DNA of 64,000 nucleotides from Candidatus Micrarchaeota archaeon (GTDB taxonomy: Archaea; B1Sed10-29; B47-G15): assembly GCA_003660975.1 (NCBI GenBank), contig QMVG01000005.1, forward strand, positions 1 to 64,000. The letters run 5' to 3'. The notes under the pieces are model-generated. The model searched no databases and was not told where the DNA came from. It was given only the letters and a program-made list of their open reading frames with translations. This document shows, in pieces, positions 589-5,502 of this stretch. Both the position numbers and the translations under genes were made by a program. Each line of letters opens with the position of its first letter. Within the stretch, counting starts at the first letter, position 1.

Positions 589-1629
589 TTAAACTATATA
601 CTCCAAAATAGTTTGAATAGTTTTTACTCTTTTTTTAGCATATTCAATATATTTTGGATTAATATCCATCCCAATGTAATATCTTCCAAGTTTCTTTGCT
701 ACAGCTGCAGTAGTTCCACTACCTACAAACGGATCAAGTACTATTCCCTTAGAAGGGGATAACAACTTTATCAGCTCTCCAATAATAAATTCCGGAAAAA
801 TTGCGGGGTGTTTTATACCTTTTATTGTTTCTACCGGGCTTTCAATAACATCTCTCTTTAAATCTTTACCCAAAATACGGATGATTGTGAAACCATTTTT
901 TTCTAATTGTATTTTTCTTCCGCCTTCTTGGCCACCAAAGGGTAACGCATGAATACCCTTTATTTTCATTCTAAATCCAGCAATCTTTCCTTCTTTAACT
1001 TCTCTTATAACTTTATTCAGCTCTTTAATTGCTTTCTTTTTCTGCTCTGGAGTAAGACCACTTTTTTCTATAAGTTCAAAATATCGCTCTCCAATTTTGG
1101 AGTTGTTATGATTATTCTTTTTCCTTTTTAAGAGAGAATGTATAGATAAAAAAGAATCTATATCAAAATAATAGTCTTCCGACTTTACAAAATCGAAAAA
1201 CGGTTCTGTAGCACTTACTAATCTTTTCTTATATTGTCTAGGTGTTGGATTTAATTTAACCCACGTTATAACATTAATAAGTTTTAAGTCAGAGAATCTG
1301 TTAAGTACTTCTATTGCAAATCGCCAAGGAACTAAAAGTAAAGAGCCATTTTTATATTTGTCTCCTATATTGAAGACAATATGACCATCTGGTCGTATTA
1401 TTCTTACACATTCCTTAAATACTTTAATTAGATTATCAATATACTCTTCTACTTCCTTTTCATTTCCTATAGCTTCTTTAATTCCATAGTCTCTTTGTTG
1501 AAAATACGGGGGAGAGGTTATTATCATATGTATAGAATCATTTGGAATTTCTTTCAATAATTCAGCACTATCACCTACTAATAATTTGTTCAAAAATTTA
1601 TTTTTCCAACTTATTTCTTTATCTGTCAT
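589..1629 (-). CDS. site-specific DNA methyltransferase, N4-C/N6-A, beta class
   Basis: Catalytic TSPPY precedes the SAM-binding LDPFVGSGTT (beta motif order); HPAIFP also present. Confidence 0.93.
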   Translation of the reverse strand: MTDKEISWKNKFLNKLLVGDSAELLKEIPNDSIHMIITSPPYFQQRDYGIKEAIGNEKEVEEYIDNLIKVFKECVRIIRPDGHIVFNIGDKYKNGSLLLVPWRFAIEVLNRFSDLKLINVITWVKLNPTPRQYKKRLVSATEPFFDFVKSEDYYFDIDSFLSIHSLLKRKKNNHNNSKIGERYFELIEKSGLTPEQKKKAIKELNKVIREVKEGKIAGFRMKIKGIHALPFGGQEGGRKIQLEKNGFTIIRILGKDLKRDVIESPVETIKGIKHPAIFPEFIIGELIKLLSPSKGIVLDPFVGSGTTAAVAKKLGRYYIGMDINPKYIEYAKKRVKTIQTILEYIV

Positions 1630-2039
1630 TTTCTCTCACCTTTCAATTCATCTTCTATCTCAAACTTTTCATGCAAACATTTTATTTCTCCTTTCAGTAA
1701 ACCTCTCAAAAACTCCTTAATTGTTATCTCTTGTCCAACTCTTGCCTGAGGATAAAATGTTATTGGTTTATTATTTTTATTTCCAAAAACGATAAGTTGG
1801 GGATAAAGAGATTTTGATTTTCTCGTTTGTTTAATTTTTATTCTTTTAGCAACAGAAATACCCCATAAAATCTGATATTTTAAGTCATCTTCTCCTTTTT
1901 CATCAATAACAAATTTTTTTACACTAACTTTAAGTTTTGTTTTTACTTCATTTAGTAAATCTTCTATTTCTCTTACTTCATCTGAGTCCTCTAAAGCACG
2001 GGGAATATAAAATTCAAATCTAAGCATTCTTACCACCAT
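1626..2039 (-). CDS. hypothetical protein in the R-M island
   Basis: 137-aa ORF with an ATGA overlap with the MTase start; no family recognised. Confidence 0.65.
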   Translation of the reverse strand: MVVRMLRFEFYIPRALEDSDEVREIEDLLNEVKTKLKVSVKKFVIDEKGEDDLKYQILWGISVAKRIKIKQTRKSKSLYPQLIVFGNKNNKPITFYPQARVGQEITIKEFLRGLLKGEIKCLHEKFEIEDELKGERK

Positions 2040-2205
2040 AAATAATGGTAAGAAATTAATTATTTTTAATTATTTTAAAGTTTACGGTTCTCTAGTACCC
2101 TACCCTATATCACCAACAAGTTTACAGAACTTAGTTTAGAAAGCTTTAAATACCTCTTTATAACCTAATATTTAAAGCTTTCTGTTCTAATTTTGAGGTG
2201 TTTTG

Positions 2206-3699
2206 ATGTTGAAGCATTTGAAAAAGATTTTGAGAAAGAATGGCCGTAGTGTAAAGACTAAAAAAAGCCAGGAAGGGAAGGGTATGAAGAAGAAAACTGT
2301 AAAAAAATCCGAAAAGAAGAAAACAAAAACAAAAGCTGTTAAAGCAAGAAAAAAGAGCAAAACTTCTAAGAAAACAGTTAAGAAAAAAGCTGTTAAGACT
2401 TCTACGAAGAAAACTGTAAAGAAGGTGGTAAAGCGTGCAAGAGGTCGGAAGAGTGTTAAGCGTCAGAGGAAAAAACCTAGTTCTTCTAAGAGGGACAAAA
2501 GCCCTAAAAGAAGGGACAAAACTGTACGACGACCAGCAAAATCAAGTAGGCGTGGTAAAAGAAGTTCTAGGACCCACAAGAGCACCCTACATGTTAGCAA
2601 GAGTAAAGCACCCAAAGAAGCTCTTGGGCAAAAAGTTATACCATTAGAAAGTGAGGCCAAGAAAAAAGAGGAAACTGCGATTGAGATATTGGCAAAGGAG
2701 ACAGTTGCAGAACCCCTAATATCTGAGTCTATTGAAGAATCCATGAAAGAGGAGGCTTTGCCTGTTCCAAAAAGTCCGGAAGCAAAACCCAGCAAAACAA
2801 TAAAGTGTCCTGAATGCGGGTCAACTGATGTTTCAATAGACTATGAGAGAGGAGAGGTTGTTTGCAACAGGTGTGGTTTGGTTATCGAGGAGAACCTTGT
2901 TGACTCTGGCCCTGAATGGAGGGCTTTTGATTCAGACCAAAGGGATAAGAGAGCAAGAACAGGGGCTCCTGTGAAGTTTACAAAGCCAAACAAAGGGCTT
3001 GCCACTGAAATAGACCAGTACAACAGAGACATAAGAGGTGTTAAGATAAGCTCCCAGCAGAGGAGCCATATGTACAGGTTGAGGAAATGGCATAAGCGAA
3101 CATCAATATCCTCCTCAATGGAGAGAAACTTGGCGATTGCCCTGTCAGAGCTTGACAGGATTGCCTCTTACTCAGGCCTCCCTCAGAACGTGAGAGAAGC
3201 AGCAGCCTTGCTATATAGAAAAGCGGTTGAGAAGGGGCTGATAAGGGGCAGGCTTATAGAGAGCGTTGTGGCTGCAGTGATATATACTGTTTGCAGGCAG
3301 TACGGTATTCCGAGGACCTTGGACGAGATCTCTGCTGTTAGTGGAATAAACAAGAAGGAGATAGGAAGGACTTACAGGTTTTTGAAGAGAGACTTGGGAA
3401 TAAAGATGCCTTTAACTGACCCAACGCATTATATTCCAAGGTTTGCAAGTGAGCTAGGTCTGTCAGGCCCTGTGCAGGAAAAGGCCAGAGCTTTGCTTAA
3501 GGAAGCCATAGACAAGGGTCTGATTTCTGGAAGAGGGCCAACAGGCGTGGCAGCAGCTGCAGTTTACATAGCAGGAGTTCTTATGGGTGAGAGGAGAACA
3601 CAAAAAGAAGTGGCAGATGTAGCAGGCGTAACAGAAGTTACCATAAGAAACCGCTACAGGGAGCTAAAGGACAGGTTAGGTCTGGATGTGCCTGCCTAA
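2206..3699 (+). CDS. tfb: transcription initiation factor IIB with ~190-aa basic/acidic N-terminal extension
   Basis: Zn ribbon CPECGS...CNRCG, B-reader GPEWRAF, two cyclin repeats, C-terminal [18 protein letters not shown] at 2195-2200 precedes ATG 2206. A shorter alternative start is ATG 2743. Confidence 0.95.
2435..2647 (+). CDS. gar1: H/ACA RNP subunit Gar1, nested in the +1 frame inside tfb
   Basis: [10 protein letters not shown]...[26 protein letters not shown] matches the archaeal Gar1 pattern (G-x-V-x-D/E-V-x-GP-x-x-x-PY). SD GAAGGTGG precedes the GTG. gar1-tfb is a conserved archaeal gene pair. Confidence 0.88.
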
Positions 3700-3705
3700 C
3701 CTTCA

Positions 3706-5502
3706 TTACTTCTTTTTCTCAACAGCCATTTGATAGGCATCCAAATAATTCTTTATTAAAATGCTCCAGTCACATTTTTCTGCTAACTGCCTCGCCTCTG
3801 CCTTCTTTTGCAACCTCTCGTCTCTCTCCAAGAAATAAAACCACAGCATTGTTTCATACAGCTCATTTACAACTTCGTTATATGTTTTTTTATCCCTTTT
3901 CAGCACTATTATGCCTGGTTTTTTACTCTGGTCGCTTATTTTTTTCACAAATGCCCCAAATCCTGCAAGGTCTGTTGTTACAGCTAATGCATTTTGAGCA
4001 GCTGTTTCCAATGGAGTATATCCCCATGGCTCGTAATAAGATGGGAACACGCCAAGATGCGAGCCAATGATGACTTCATTGTAGTCCATACCAAGCATGC
4101 CATCTGCTTTTGAAACATATATAGGGTAAAAGACAACCTTCACCTTGTCCTCTGGACCGTTATCAAGGCCGTTTTTTCTGCATGCGTTTAATATAGGGTC
4201 ATTTTTTTCGTTTTCCAAAATATGCGTTGACAGCGGAGCTTTTCCTTCTTTCCTAAATGCCCTGTAGTCCTGCTTGATTGACCTCAAAAAGGTAACATCA
4301 AAGAGGTTATCTGTCTTGGGCATTTTGCCTTTTACCAATGCATCCAAAATCCTTCTTTTTATGTAAGGCAGCTCCTCCACCACCATCTCTTTCATATCCT
4401 CAAAGAAGGACAAGTTTGAAAGCACCTCTATGTCCATGCTCTTAACAGCAGCAGGTATGAAAAGAAAGGCAAATACGTTCTTTTCAGCGTCCATCTCCCT
4501 CAGTTTCTGGTTTAACTTTCCCAAGGCATCGATGAAGACATCTATCCCCTTATTCCTGAATTCATATCTTCCGCTTATGAAAAATATAAGCCCCTTCTCC
4601 ACATCTATGGGATAATACGGATTGAAATAACCTCTTAAGAAGTCCCTTATCTTCTCTCTGTACTCCCTGTGTTTGTTTATCAGCTCCTCTACACTGGGAA
4701 AGGTGCTTATTTCAAGACCGTTAGGAGTTATTACATCTGGAGACTTTCCCAAGATATATTTGGCCTCTCTTGCTGTTATCTCTGAAACAGTTGTGAAGAC
4801 ATCTGCGTTATGGGCACAGGCCTTTTCTGTTAAGTGCTTTGCCTGAGCGTTATATTTTTTTGCCTTTTCATCAGGCATGCTTTCGTTTCTCATAAGACCT
4901 TCATTTACCTCTTTGTAAAGGTCCTCTCCAGACTCCGCGAGAATCCTTCCCATAACAGTGGCGTGTGTTGTGAAGACAGTTGATATGCCAAGCTCTTTCT
5001 TTTTAAGGTAAAGCAGTGCAGCTCCTGACAGCCATTCGTGGAAATGTGCTATCATTTTCTTACTGTCAAAAACAGAAATCAGTTTTTCCAGCAACATACC
5101 TGACGCTGTTGCCCACACTATTGGGTCGTCAAACCAAATGTCTGCTGTGAGGGAGTCAATCTTGTAATCTTCCCAAAGCTTTGCCTTTATCTTGTCCTTC
5201 TGCTTCATGAATCTTGAGTAGTCAACAAGAAAAGCATTTGGATTCCCCTTTACAAGCCATTTCCCATAGTGGATTATTATGCCCTTTTCCTTCATTTCAT
5301 CATATACCCATTTGCTCTTATCTGGAAACGGAAGCTCCCTGAACCATATGGCTGCTTTATTCGGCACATAAGGGCCTATGGCATAGTAACTCCTACCAAA
5401 GCGCTTTATTATTTCAGGAGTCTTTGACTCTATAACGCGGTATATGCCACCTATTTTGTTGCAAACTTCATAGGACAGTTCAAAGAGCATTTTGTCTTCC
5501 AT
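3706..5502 (-). CDS. glycogen synthase, GT3 (eukaryote-type) family
   Basis: FELSYEVCNKIGGIY, HFHEWL, SGRYEFRNKG and FPSYYEPWGYTP are GT3 signatures. Confidence 0.92.
   Translation of the reverse strand: MEDKMLFELSYEVCNKIGGIYRVIESKTPEIIKRFGRSYYAIGPYVPNKAAIWFRELPFPDKSKWVYDEMKEKGIIIHYGKWLVKGNPNAFLVDYSRFMKQKDKIKAKLWEDYKIDSLTADIWFDDPIVWATASGMLLEKLISVFDSKKMIAHFHEWLSGAALLYLKKKELGISTVFTTHATVMGRILAESGEDLYKEVNEGLMRNESMPDEKAKKYNAQAKHLTEKACAHNADVFTTVSEITAREAKYILGKSPDVITPNGLEISTFPSVEELINKHREYREKIRDFLRGYFNPYYPIDVEKGLIFFISGRYEFRNKGIDVFIDALGKLNQKLREMDAEKNVFAFLFIPAAVKSMDIEVLSNLSFFEDMKEMVVEELPYIKRRILDALVKGKMPKTDNLFDVTFLRSIKQDYRAFRKEGKAPLSTHILENEKNDPILNACRKNGLDNGPEDKVKVVFYPIYVSKADGMLGMDYNEVIIGSHLGVFPSYYEPWGYTPLETAAQNALAVTTDLAGFGAFVKKISDQSKKPGIIVLKRDKKTYNEVVNELYETMLWFYFLERDERLQKKAEARQLAEKCDWSILIKNYLDAYQMAVEKKK

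Follow-up and report, generated by a model that had tools for sequence, protein, structure and literature searches.

We have found that, in a Candidatus Micrarchaeota archaeon, the complete gene for Gar1, a subunit of the H/ACA pseudouridylation complex, lies wholly inside the reading frame of the basal transcription factor TFB, and that gar1 and tfb are probably a nested, dual-coding gene pair. The stretch of DNA that we analysed, referred to here as the window, is 64,000 nucleotides long. In the list of its open reading frames (ORFs) the long tfb frame is free of stops on the plus strand from ATG 2206 to 3699 (497 aa plus stop); the open stretch begins at 2203/2206, and a ribosome entering at 2206 encounters no stop before 3699. 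The gar1 gene extends from GTG 2435 to a TAG that ends at 2647 (70 aa), in the +1 frame relative to tfb (2435 minus 2206 is 229), and in its own frame a TAA at 2429-2431 lies immediately ahead of the GTG. Because gar1 is read in the +1 frame inside tfb, its 213 nt also encode TFB residues 77-147. Two intact ORFs, each with a start signal of its own, are found in different frames of the same DNA. The features of the locus, in window positions, are as follows.

2141-2183, plus strand: putative promoter region, with TTTAAA at 2145-2150, TTTATA at 2157-2162 and TTTAAA at 2171-2176
Within 2141-2183, plus strand: 14-nt inverted repeat, AGAAAGCTTTAAAT / ATTTAAAGCTTTCT, enclosing the TATA-like boxes
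2195-2200, plus strand: Shine-Dalgarno (SD) sequence GAGGTG, 5 nt ahead of ATG 2206
2206-3699, plus strand: long tfb reading frame, 497 aa plus stop
2206-2434, plus strand: Lys-rich head of the TFB extension, 76 aa, 47% K+R, with repeats
2423-2427, plus strand: SD sequence AGGTG, 7 nt ahead of GTG 2435 and inside tfb codons
2435-2647, plus strand: gar1, 70 aa plus TAG, with TFB residues 77-147 (R/K/S-rich) on the same bases
2648-2742, plus strand: acidic part of the TFB extension, from behind the gar1 stop up to ATG 2743
2743-2745, plus strand: in-frame ATG, possible start of a short TFB of 318 aa, 21 aa ahead of the zinc ribbon
2803-2928, plus strand: TFB zinc ribbon, residues 200-241 (PF08271, E 1.1e-19)
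2929-3696, plus strand: TFB linker and two cyclin-like repeats (PF00382, E 2.7e-46, two stretches)

The original prediction had described a tfb frame open from an ATG with the SD GAGGTG to 3699, a complete 70-codon Gar1 ORF with its own SD and GTG in the +1 frame inside it, and a stop-free, R/K/S-rich reading of the shared 213 nt in the tfb frame between a Lys-rich head and an acidic stretch, all of which hold. We propose that a single plus-strand transcript, begun at the TATA-like boxes at about 2145-2176, would carry two overlapping cistrons. Initiation at ATG 2206 behind GAGGTG would give the 497-aa TFB, that is, a disordered extension of about 195 aa followed by a canonical core, and initiation at the internal AGGTG and GTG 2435 would give, in the +1 frame, the 70-aa Gar1 for the H/ACA complex. 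We put the probability of this reading, in which one transcript with two starts would make both the long TFB and the nested Gar1 from 213 dual-coding nucleotides, at roughly two in three. The genes that flank the gar1/tfb unit on either side are on the minus strand, and 2141-2183 is therefore the only place for its promoter; on the plus strand TTTAWA occurs at 2074, 2145, 2157 and 2171 only, with no such box within 2206-2800, and the boxes at about 2145-2176 presumably act as the promoter of the unit. As for the starts, SD matches of at least 6 nt precede 91 of 948 proxy gene starts (9.6%) versus 42 of 5000 random positions (0.84%), and matches of at least 5 nt precede 27% of proxy starts versus 4.6% of background positions; from these signals we infer that both 2206 and 2435 are used. 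ATG 2743, which lies where the short TFBs of relatives begin, could also yield a short TFB. No SD-like word lies ahead of ATG 2743 or of TTG 2690. Given the position of ATG 2743 and the fact that about half of the proxy starts in the genome (488/948) lack an SD, the short TFB could be the main or only functional form. We also considered whether the head might be an RNA element and rejected this: an Rfam search gave two matches, both under their gathering scores (mir-3047, 26.4 against 53; CRISPR-DR31, 20.8 against 35), the former sits on the promoter palindrome, and both read as chance.

The nested 70-codon ORF is a bona fide Gar1. Its product exceeds the cut-off of Pfam PF04410 (33.8 bits against 29.3), and all NCBIfam Gar1 equivalogs score below theirs (best 33.6 against 114). 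The AF2 model (pLDDT 94.9) has the six-stranded beta-barrel fold of archaeal Gar1, and Foldseek superposes it on Pyrococcus furiosus Gar1 (2ey4_D and 2hvy_B) with a TM score of 0.89-0.90 and an rmsd of 1.4-1.5 Å over 71 columns. In a 20-sequence alignment the protein retains the invariant residues M1, G5, G39, G46 and P51 together with P47, G65 and L68, which occupy columns conserved to at least 90%. The nested copy is the sole Gar1 match in an assembly that is 89.7% complete, and the H/ACA partners Cbf5 (286 aa) and Nop10 are both encoded in the genome. A model of the complex of Cbf5 and Gar1 reaches an ipSAE of 0.71, compared with 0.19 for the best of three controls, a mark that 58 of 80 solved complexes attain, as do 2 of 110 mismatched pairs; the model runs have at least 92% of contacts in common, the partners have a pLDDT of at least 88, and the interface is formed by Gar1 residues 44-52. 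The model supports a putative binding of Gar1 to Cbf5; because like complexes have already been solved (2EY4, 2HVY), this result may reflect memory. Gar1 is 35% identical (30-41) to nine relatives of the same order, which are 62% identical (44-94) among themselves, whereas the controls are level (82.0 versus 81.5 for the TFB core and 45.5 versus 51.1 for Cbf5). The divergence of the nested Gar1 is about double what these controls would predict, and relaxed selection could be an alternative reading of its faster divergence. The codon score of gar1 in its own frame stands at the 14th percentile of gene windows.

The last 300 or so residues of the 497-aa frame are a canonical TFB. Residues 194-496 match NF001658 with 462 bits (cut-off 384), the zinc ribbon and two cyclin-like repeats of archaeal TFBs are both present (PF08271 and PF00382), and the core is 77-87% identical to the TFBs of the same order. 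The extension of about 195 aa that precedes it begins with a Lys-rich head, continues with an Arg/Lys/Ser-rich middle and ends in an acidic tail; it is not covered by any Pfam family, and a search of 5.8 billion proteins with residues 70-200 yielded no homologue (332 candidates, none scored). On either side of gar1 the sequence looks coding in the tfb frame only. Across the head (2206-2434) the gar1 frame has many stops and the tfb frame is open, the log-likelihood of the codons averages -3.75 per codon for the tfb frame and -4.82 and -4.50 for the remaining frames, the tfb value being equalled by just 19 of 4316 non-coding-like windows of 228 nt, and direct repeats are spaced 27, 54 and 39 nt apart, all multiples of 3. 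For the acidic stretch (2648-2742) the corresponding values are -3.78 against -4.32 and -5.11, and the score is equalled by 71 of 6496 non-coding-like windows of 96 nt (1.1%). Public collections hold the exact 497-aa TFB (on two contigs, from several sources) and also the 318-aa form, one annotation being precisely gar1 plus the 318-aa form. A given record carries the long TFB on its own or else gar1 and the short TFB, never both readings at once, and hence one of two essential-looking products is missing under either model.

Within the overlap itself the codon scores of the tfb and gar1 frames are nearly the same (-4.08 and -4.11, with -5.20 for the third frame), and among 6951 gene windows just 0.2% have a -1 frame that scores as high as -4.08. 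The tfb-frame reading of gar1 contains 40.3% K+R, a value reached by none of 50,000 synonymous resamples (mean 18.8%, sd 3.8) and by none of the 275 stop-free ones. Third positions of gar1 are 50% A and 7% T (A3 and T3 of 0.50 and 0.07), compared with 0.28 and 0.24 in the adjacent tfb core, and an A3 of at least 35 together with a T3 of at most 5 occurs in 3 of 9071 windows. We suggest that the tfb frame across gar1 need only be stop-free, basic and unstructured, and that the synonymous sites of gar1 would supply such a reading. An open frame of this length is uncommon: a -1 frame is open over 72 codons in 566 of 24,250 gene windows of the genome (2.3%), and synonymous resamples of gar1 have an open frame in 0.48% of 100,000 cases (mean 4.3 stops). 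Openness taken alone can still be due to chance, and when gar1's own codons are shuffled the tfb frame remains open in 31% of trials. The original prediction had looked to stop-codon avoidance as a check. We see no position-specific avoidance in gar1, where the depletion of T3 is general (0/16 versus 5/36); given this and the 31% of permutations that stay open, we discarded the argument in favour of the composition test. We also note that the non-nested gar1 of a genome of the same order, G011, is similarly skewed (A3 0.63, T3 0.07), with a -1 frame of 0.39 K+R and three stops, so that skew by itself does not prove overprinting. Possible signatures of selection are homology in the gar1 frame and, in the tfb frame, the codon score, the K+R content and the coding-like flanks; against them stand the skew in G011 and the single variant listed inside the overlap.

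Among relatives, gar1 was found in 20 of 29 loci; four of the nine loci in which it was not found (L019, L020, L022 and L028) end at a contig edge close upstream of tfb. In 19 of these 20 loci tfb follows it immediately, in line with the expectation that gar1 is usually a separate gene just upstream of tfb, and a gar1-tfb2 operon and a "conserved syntenic association" in Sulfolobus and Thermoproteota are described in bioRxiv 10.64898/2026.09.06.749720. In all 20 the frame that corresponds to the tfb frame contains 1-10 stops; in L032 gar1 and tfb overlap by 28 nt or more. In the four genomes of a sister family (f10) the TFB frames are 475-540 aa long, with a Lys-rich and then acidic N-terminal extension of about 170-240 aa and gar1 un-nested upstream. 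G011 has a TFB with a Lys-rich extension of 45 aa, and basic extensions of 60-100 aa precede the TFBs of ten more loci from other families (L056-L062 and L064-L066). When the 95 residues ahead of the zinc ribbon were aligned with MAFFT L-INS-i, no motif common to the present extension and those of f10 emerged, and the likeness is limited to composition, the basic-then-acidic order and overall length. No separate Lys-rich gene lies ahead of gar1 in relatives, where Lys-rich segments are TFB N-termini only. A wider survey compared the short TFB with 401 archaeal genomes; among the best 150 of 519 matches, open frames of at least 450 aa belong to this genome, the four f10 genomes and a GC-rich relative, G111. 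G111 likewise has a tfb frame that stays open across gar1, but no start codon precedes gar1 there, and this is chance. Of the 11 loci inspected, whose open frames measure 357-460 aa, G111 alone has gar1 inside the open frame. A tblastn search with Gar1 gave no relatives in metagenome contigs (593 pattern matches) or genome contigs (470 pattern matches), and no second member of the source organism's family is present in its order (18 genomes) or class (here equivalent to the phylum, 31 genomes).

The most serious rival, which we nevertheless regard as unlikely, is that only Gar1 and a short 318-aa TFB from ATG 2743 or nearby are functional, with the 2206 frame either not initiated or a tolerated by-product in which residues 1-179 have no selected role, and with the open frame arising from an A-rich, T-poor codon bias. 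The position of ATG 2743, 21 aa before the zinc ribbon and at the relatives' TFB start, is what this would lead one to expect, as is the one public annotation of gar1 plus the 318-aa form, and the skewed, basic -1 frame of the non-nested gar1 in G011, the chance opening in G111 and the 31% of codon permutations that stay open indicate how such a frame might come about. It leaves unexplained, however, the 229 nt from promoter to gar1 and the 95 nt that follow gar1, both coding-like in the tfb frame only, and it is the head that carries a 6-nt SD, an ATG and in-frame repeats, whereas ATG 2743 is SD-less. The same basic-plus-acidic architecture in the TFBs of relatives and the absence of 40% K+R from 50,000 resamples of the overlap also speak against it. 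The converse, that only the long TFB matters and its extension is overwriting a gar1 that is a relic in decay, is in our view improbable. Divergence at about twice the expectation from TFB and Cbf5 and the 14th-percentile codon score would suit a relic; an intact ORF with SD and GTG, five invariant and three near-invariant columns kept, a confident model (pLDDT 94.9, TM 0.9 to solved Gar1) and a complex with its own Cbf5 at 0.71 against 0.19 for the control (which may be memory of solved complexes) would not. This gar1 is moreover the sole one found, while Cbf5 and Nop10 are retained, and the one variant listed within it is synonymous in the gar1 frame.

It is also conceivable, if very improbable, that a programmed +1 frameshift near 2430 joins the Lys-rich head to Gar1, producing a basic-tailed Gar1 loosely like the eukaryotic Gar1 with its GAR domains, with TFB made from 2743. 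The head does stop exactly where gar1 begins, and the Gar1 proteins of some relatives (L026, L031 and L032) have basic C-terminal tails. Against this, gar1 has its own SD and start, the TAA at 2429-2431 blocks its frame 3 nt ahead of the GTG, RNA structure at 2395-2475 is not significant (folding z -0.14), and the acidic stretch still scores as coding-like in the tfb frame. Lastly, an assembly or sequencing indel might have joined two separate ORFs artificially, and both the many indel-prone A-runs in the region and the origin of the genome in a 130-contig metagenome assembly invite this suspicion. We consider its probability negligible: two sequencing runs contain 100% of sampled words, a 27.9-kb contig (depth 40) of run X2, a run that may be the assembly's own source, is identical over 1600-3800, and contigs from three other studies, covering 2141-2510, 2283-2530, 2535-2715, 2585-2822 and 2686-2845 (together spanning 2141-2530 and 2535-2845), have 0 gaps, with 1-4 differences in each; runs X3-X5 contain the locus in pieces of 83-370 nt. 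As to the indels that the original prediction had asked to be checked, none separates the locus from the contigs of four other runs, and the 497-aa protein is recorded on two contigs from several sources; the arrangement is not an assembly error. Five variants are listed in 2206-2742, of which three are synonymous in tfb (among them 2716 C>T, at a first codon position), one is K>R, and one, the sole variant inside gar1, is synonymous in gar1 and P>S in tfb; their number is small, and the contigs that supply them have a depth of 2-4, at which a difference may be an error.

Several independent in-silico signals back the reading in which the long TFB and the nested Gar1 would both be made, namely the flanks, the start signals, the single promoter region, the architecture of the f10 TFBs, the codon skew, the divergence of Gar1 and the absence of indels. 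The original prediction also held that TFB was extended upstream by overprinting gar1; its dual coding gains support from these signals, whereas its route is one of two that are possible, the other being a move of gar1 into an extension that tfb already had. The extension would probably serve in non-specific DNA or RNA contact or as a regulatory tail, like the basic extensions at the N-termini of relatives' TFBs. We think it reasonably probable that the single full-length TFB, in part, and the only detected Gar1, in whole, share 213 nt in two frames of one mRNA with two initiation sites, to which ATG 2743 might add a short TFB, and that overprinting by a basic low-complexity tail has visibly reshaped the codons and protein of an ancient structured gene, the older gene being the nested one in a natural cellular case.

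Complete small cistrons nested out of frame on the same strand are known in Rz1 within Rz of bacteriophage λ, E within D of phiX174 and comS within srfA of Bacillus subtilis, and gar1 resembles them in having its own start signal in another frame of the same mRNA. In those cases, however, the nested gene is the novelty, whereas here the nested gene is ancient and universal in archaea and eukarya and the younger layer is a low-complexity extension of a universal gene. In cellular genomes, long overlaps on one strand are usually written off as mistakes of annotation, and gene callers do not permit them. With the archaeal gar1-tfb operon the locus has in common both genes, their order, their strand and a single transcription unit, but in the operon the two genes stand apart or have no more than a short overlap of a few bases (28 nt or more in L032), and here all of gar1 is inside tfb with 229 nt of tfb coding sequence upstream. 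With the basic-extension TFBs (f10, G011, L056-L062 and L064-L066) it has in common a Lys/Ser/Thr-rich and then acidic segment ahead of the zinc ribbon; in those loci gar1, where found, is outside the extension, and no alignable motif is in common with this TFB. Overlapping prokaryotic genes are the subject of PMC2542354, PMC2174442 and PMC8850804, and we found no report, supplements aside, of gar1 nested in tfb or of Lys-rich TFB extensions.

If both frames are translated, the locus would be a rare cellular case of two universal information-processing genes on shared DNA, and one with an unusual direction, in that a disordered tail would have overprinted an old folded protein. The cost of this would be measurable, as a Gar1 diverging about twice as fast as expected and as an extreme choice of codons. 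The locus represents the archaea-wide coupling of gar1 and tfb in its tightest possible form, and it points to basic N-terminal tails on the TFBs of small-genome archaea.

We find that gar1 lies complete within the reading frame of tfb and that each frame begins behind its own Shine-Dalgarno (SD) sequence. The original prediction described this anatomy (a 70-codon gar1 wholly inside the tfb frame, offset +1) accurately, and its coordinates, frames and SDs all hold.

Features of the gar1/tfb locus and its neighbours
589-1629, minus strand: N6/N4 DNA methylase (PF01555, E 8.4e-48)
1626-2039, minus strand: 137-aa ORF, no Pfam family
2203/2206-3699, plus strand: long tfb frame, open, 497 aa from ATG 2206, with GAGGTG 5 nt before the ATG
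2435-2647, plus strand: gar1, 70 codons from GTG 2435 to TAG 2647, wholly within the tfb frame and one base out of phase
2463-2795, minus strand: 110-aa open antisense ORF facing the overlap and acidic stretch
3706-5502, minus strand: glycogen synthase, 598 aa (PF05693 type, E 6.9e-152)

The window (contig C5) belongs to a 1.33-Mb genome (130 contigs, 89.7% complete, 43.5% GC), and gar1/tfb is a lone plus-strand unit, with minus-strand genes to its left and right. The methylase and the 137-aa ORF overlap by 4 nt and may form a restriction-modification pair. The glycogen synthase, notable in a 1.3-Mb genome, is convergent with tfb, its stop codon starting 6 nt past the end of the tfb stop codon. 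The antisense ORF is probably a side effect of purine richness on the sense strand.

Both TFB and Gar1 are real proteins. TFB is canonical over residues 194-496 (NF001658, 462 bits; cut-off 384), its core holding a Zn ribbon (PF08271) along with two TFIIB repeats. The 70-aa ORF exceeds the Pfam Gar1 threshold (33.8 versus 29.3 bits), aligns end to end with Gar1 from 19 relatives while retaining 5/5 invariant and 3/3 near-invariant columns, and has a predicted fold (mean pLDDT 94.9) that superposes on Pyrococcus furiosus Gar1 (2ey4_D, 2hvy_B) with TM 0.89-0.90 and rmsd 1.4-1.5 Å. It is the sole Gar1 match in the genome, which also encodes the partners Nop10 and a 286-aa Cbf5. The modelled Cbf5-Gar1 complex reaches an ipSAE of 0.71 (best of three controls, 0.19), a value that may reflect memory of solved Cbf5-Gar1 complexes; runs share at least 92% of contacts, with partner pLDDT of at least 88. 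Of 80 solved complexes 58 attain this ipSAE mark, as do 2 of 110 mismatched pairs; we read the pass as likeness, not binding. We note a second TFB-like fragment at the start of a short contig (G000:C114; TFIIB repeat, E 2.3e-7), with 39% identity to TFB residues 359-456 at 140-439 (L002) and, in another frame, 60% identity to residues 464-493 at 444-533 (L003); the fragment may be a paralogue or else a broken copy.

Support for translation of the long frame is indirect but draws on several independent lines: the sequence flanking gar1, the start signals, the relatives, the gar1 codons and Gar1 divergence. The stretches on either side of gar1 (229 nt upstream, 95 nt downstream) are coding-like in the tfb frame only, with log-likelihoods per codon of -3.75 for the Lys-rich head (other frames -4.82 and -4.50) and -3.78 for the acidic part (-4.32 and -5.11), the references being -3.94 for the tfb core and -3.97 for the gene mean. 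Among genome segments lacking long ORFs, 19 of 4316 windows (228 nt) hold an open frame that scores as well as the head, and 71 of 6496 windows (96 nt) hold one that scores as well as the acidic part. The head holds a 10-letter in-frame protein repeat in four copies, with DNA repeats spaced 27, 39 and 54 nt. A 6-nt SD like that at ATG 2206 precedes 9.6% of proxy gene starts and 0.84% of random positions; for a 5-nt SD like that at GTG 2435 the figures are 27% and 4.6%. TTTAWA boxes on the plus strand occur only at 2074, 2145, 2157 and 2171; because none falls within 2206-2800, gar1 and tfb must be transcribed from one promoter lying upstream of 2206. A ribosome that initiates at 2206 meets no stop until 3699. 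A 14-nt inverted repeat (AGAAAGCTTTAAAT / ATTTAAAGCTTTCT, 2141-2183) upstream of ATG 2206 bears two TATA-like boxes and may function as a regulator site or as a bidirectional promoter element; its Rfam hairpin match is sub-threshold (mir-3047, 26.4 versus 53 bits).

Third positions of gar1 are 50% A and 7% T, against 28% and 27% in the genome's genes and 28% and 24% in the adjacent tfb core, and this A-rich, T-poor codon choice, equalled in only 3 of 9071 gene windows, is what leaves the tfb-frame reading stop-free. Synonymous resampling of gar1 kept the tfb frame open in 0.48% of 100,000 trials (mean 4.3 stops), and the tfb-frame codon score over gar1 is attained by only 0.2% of gene windows' -1 frames. 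The reading is 40.3% Lys plus Arg, resembling the head (47%); the mean is 18.8% (s.d. 3.8) over all resamples and 22.2% over the 275 stop-free ones, with 0 of 50,000 and 0 of 275 attaining 40.3%. The T depletion is general, not aimed at stop-creating contexts, and permuting gar1's own codons leaves the tfb frame open in 31% of trials. The non-nested gar1 of G011, a genome of the same order, has third positions of 0.63 A and 0.07 T and a basic -1 frame (Lys plus Arg 0.39) with three stops; such skew is therefore possible without overlap, or may have pre-adapted gar1 to overprinting.

Among the 31 genomes sampled for the phylum, all four of the sister family f10 have a tfb frame that is open for 475-540 aa, with an extension of about 170-240 aa, Lys-rich then acidic, ahead of the Zn ribbon, and gar1 stops right where the extended tfb starts at 3/3 loci with upstream sequence (L022 ends at the contig end). 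The window shares this architecture and total length but differs in having gar1 inside the basic part; no motif aligns between its extension and those of f10, the likeness being one of composition only. TFB of G011 carries a 45-aa Lys-rich extension, its gene (L007, G011:C3, 1399-2457) separated from gar1 (402-614) by ~800 nt that contain two small ORFs and a stretch that, judged by eye, resembles a tRNA. At ten loci from other archaeal families (L056-L062, L064-L066), TFBs begin with an extension of 60-100 aa that is rich in Lys and Ser, and in many cases an acidic part comes next. Judged from these sequences, basic extensions look like a recurrent feature; we found no description of Lys/Ser-rich ones in the literature searched. 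In a distant archaeon (L032, G037:C36) the basic C-terminal tail of Gar1 (gene 1245-1529) overlaps the TFB match (from 1501) by 28 nt. At L063 (G111:C15, 62% GC) the tfb frame (763-2142) is open across all of gar1 (929-1201). It has no start codon before 1153, and the real start and SD lie at the gar1 stop; we therefore rejected this locus as a second nested case, a chance look-alike.

True dual coding of gar1 and a long TFB is, we estimate, about 65% probable: several independent sequence signals favour the claim, although the skew of the non-nested G011 gar1 and the chance open frame in G111 weaken it. ATG 2743 is placed where short TFBs start, so a 318-aa form may coexist or dominate, and public records contain the 497-aa, the 318-aa and the 70-aa proteins; to our knowledge, no single gene-caller annotation can carry both readings. 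That Gar1 and short TFB are the only products is unlikely, though it deserves some weight; the flanks are coding-like in the tfb frame, and no SD was found at ATG 2743 or TTG 2690. Distinctly less probable is a long TFB with a dying gar1. Gar1 of the window is 35% (30-41) identical to nine same-order relatives, versus 62% (44-94) among themselves, without a comparable lineage effect in the TFB core (82.0 versus 81.5) or Cbf5 (45.5 versus 51.1); this extra divergence may be a price paid, and relaxed selection fits it as well as dual constraint does, while the conserved Gar1 columns are kept.

Fusion of the head to Gar1 by frameshift, for which the head is at least adjacent, is very improbable; upstream of GTG 2435 lie AGGTG at 7 nt and, directly before it, a TAA in the gar1 frame. 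We give next to no credence to an artefact. Sampled words of 2100-3000 are 100% present in two sequencing runs, and contigs of four runs were compared over 1600-3800. That of X2 (27.9 kb, depth 40), possibly the assembly's source, is identical throughout. Contigs from three other studies show no gaps, with one difference over 2141-2510 (X3), four over 2283-2530 and three over 2585-2822 (X5), and two over 2535-2715 and one over 2686-2845 (X4); at a depth of only 2-4, any one difference may be an error. To the extent that contigs can reveal one, an indel joining two ORFs, a concern raised with the original prediction, is nevertheless excluded. Among the variants listed, five fall within 2206-2742 (30 further differences lie over 1600-3800): those at 2340 and 2406 (third positions) and 2716 (first position, CTA>TTA) are synonymous in tfb, 2360 is K>R in tfb, and 2476 is synonymous in gar1 and P>S in tfb. 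They are compatible with dual coding and too few for a test.

Under dual coding, one mRNA would bear two initiation sites, frame 0 giving a long TFB read through gar1 and frame +1 giving Gar1 by internal initiation, and the extension would serve TFB as a disordered tail with basic and acidic parts. Such a locus may have arisen when the tfb start moved upstream past gar1 and a Lys-repeat then grew, or through rearrangement of a layout like that of f10. Phages and a few bacteria offer examples of nested out-of-frame cistrons. A gar1-tfb operon is already known (bioRxiv 10.64898/2026.09.06.749720), and we found no report of gar1 nested in tfb in the literature searched. What appears to be new is a cellular genome in which a complete, ancient, folded gene would sit nested inside another universal gene's low-complexity extension.
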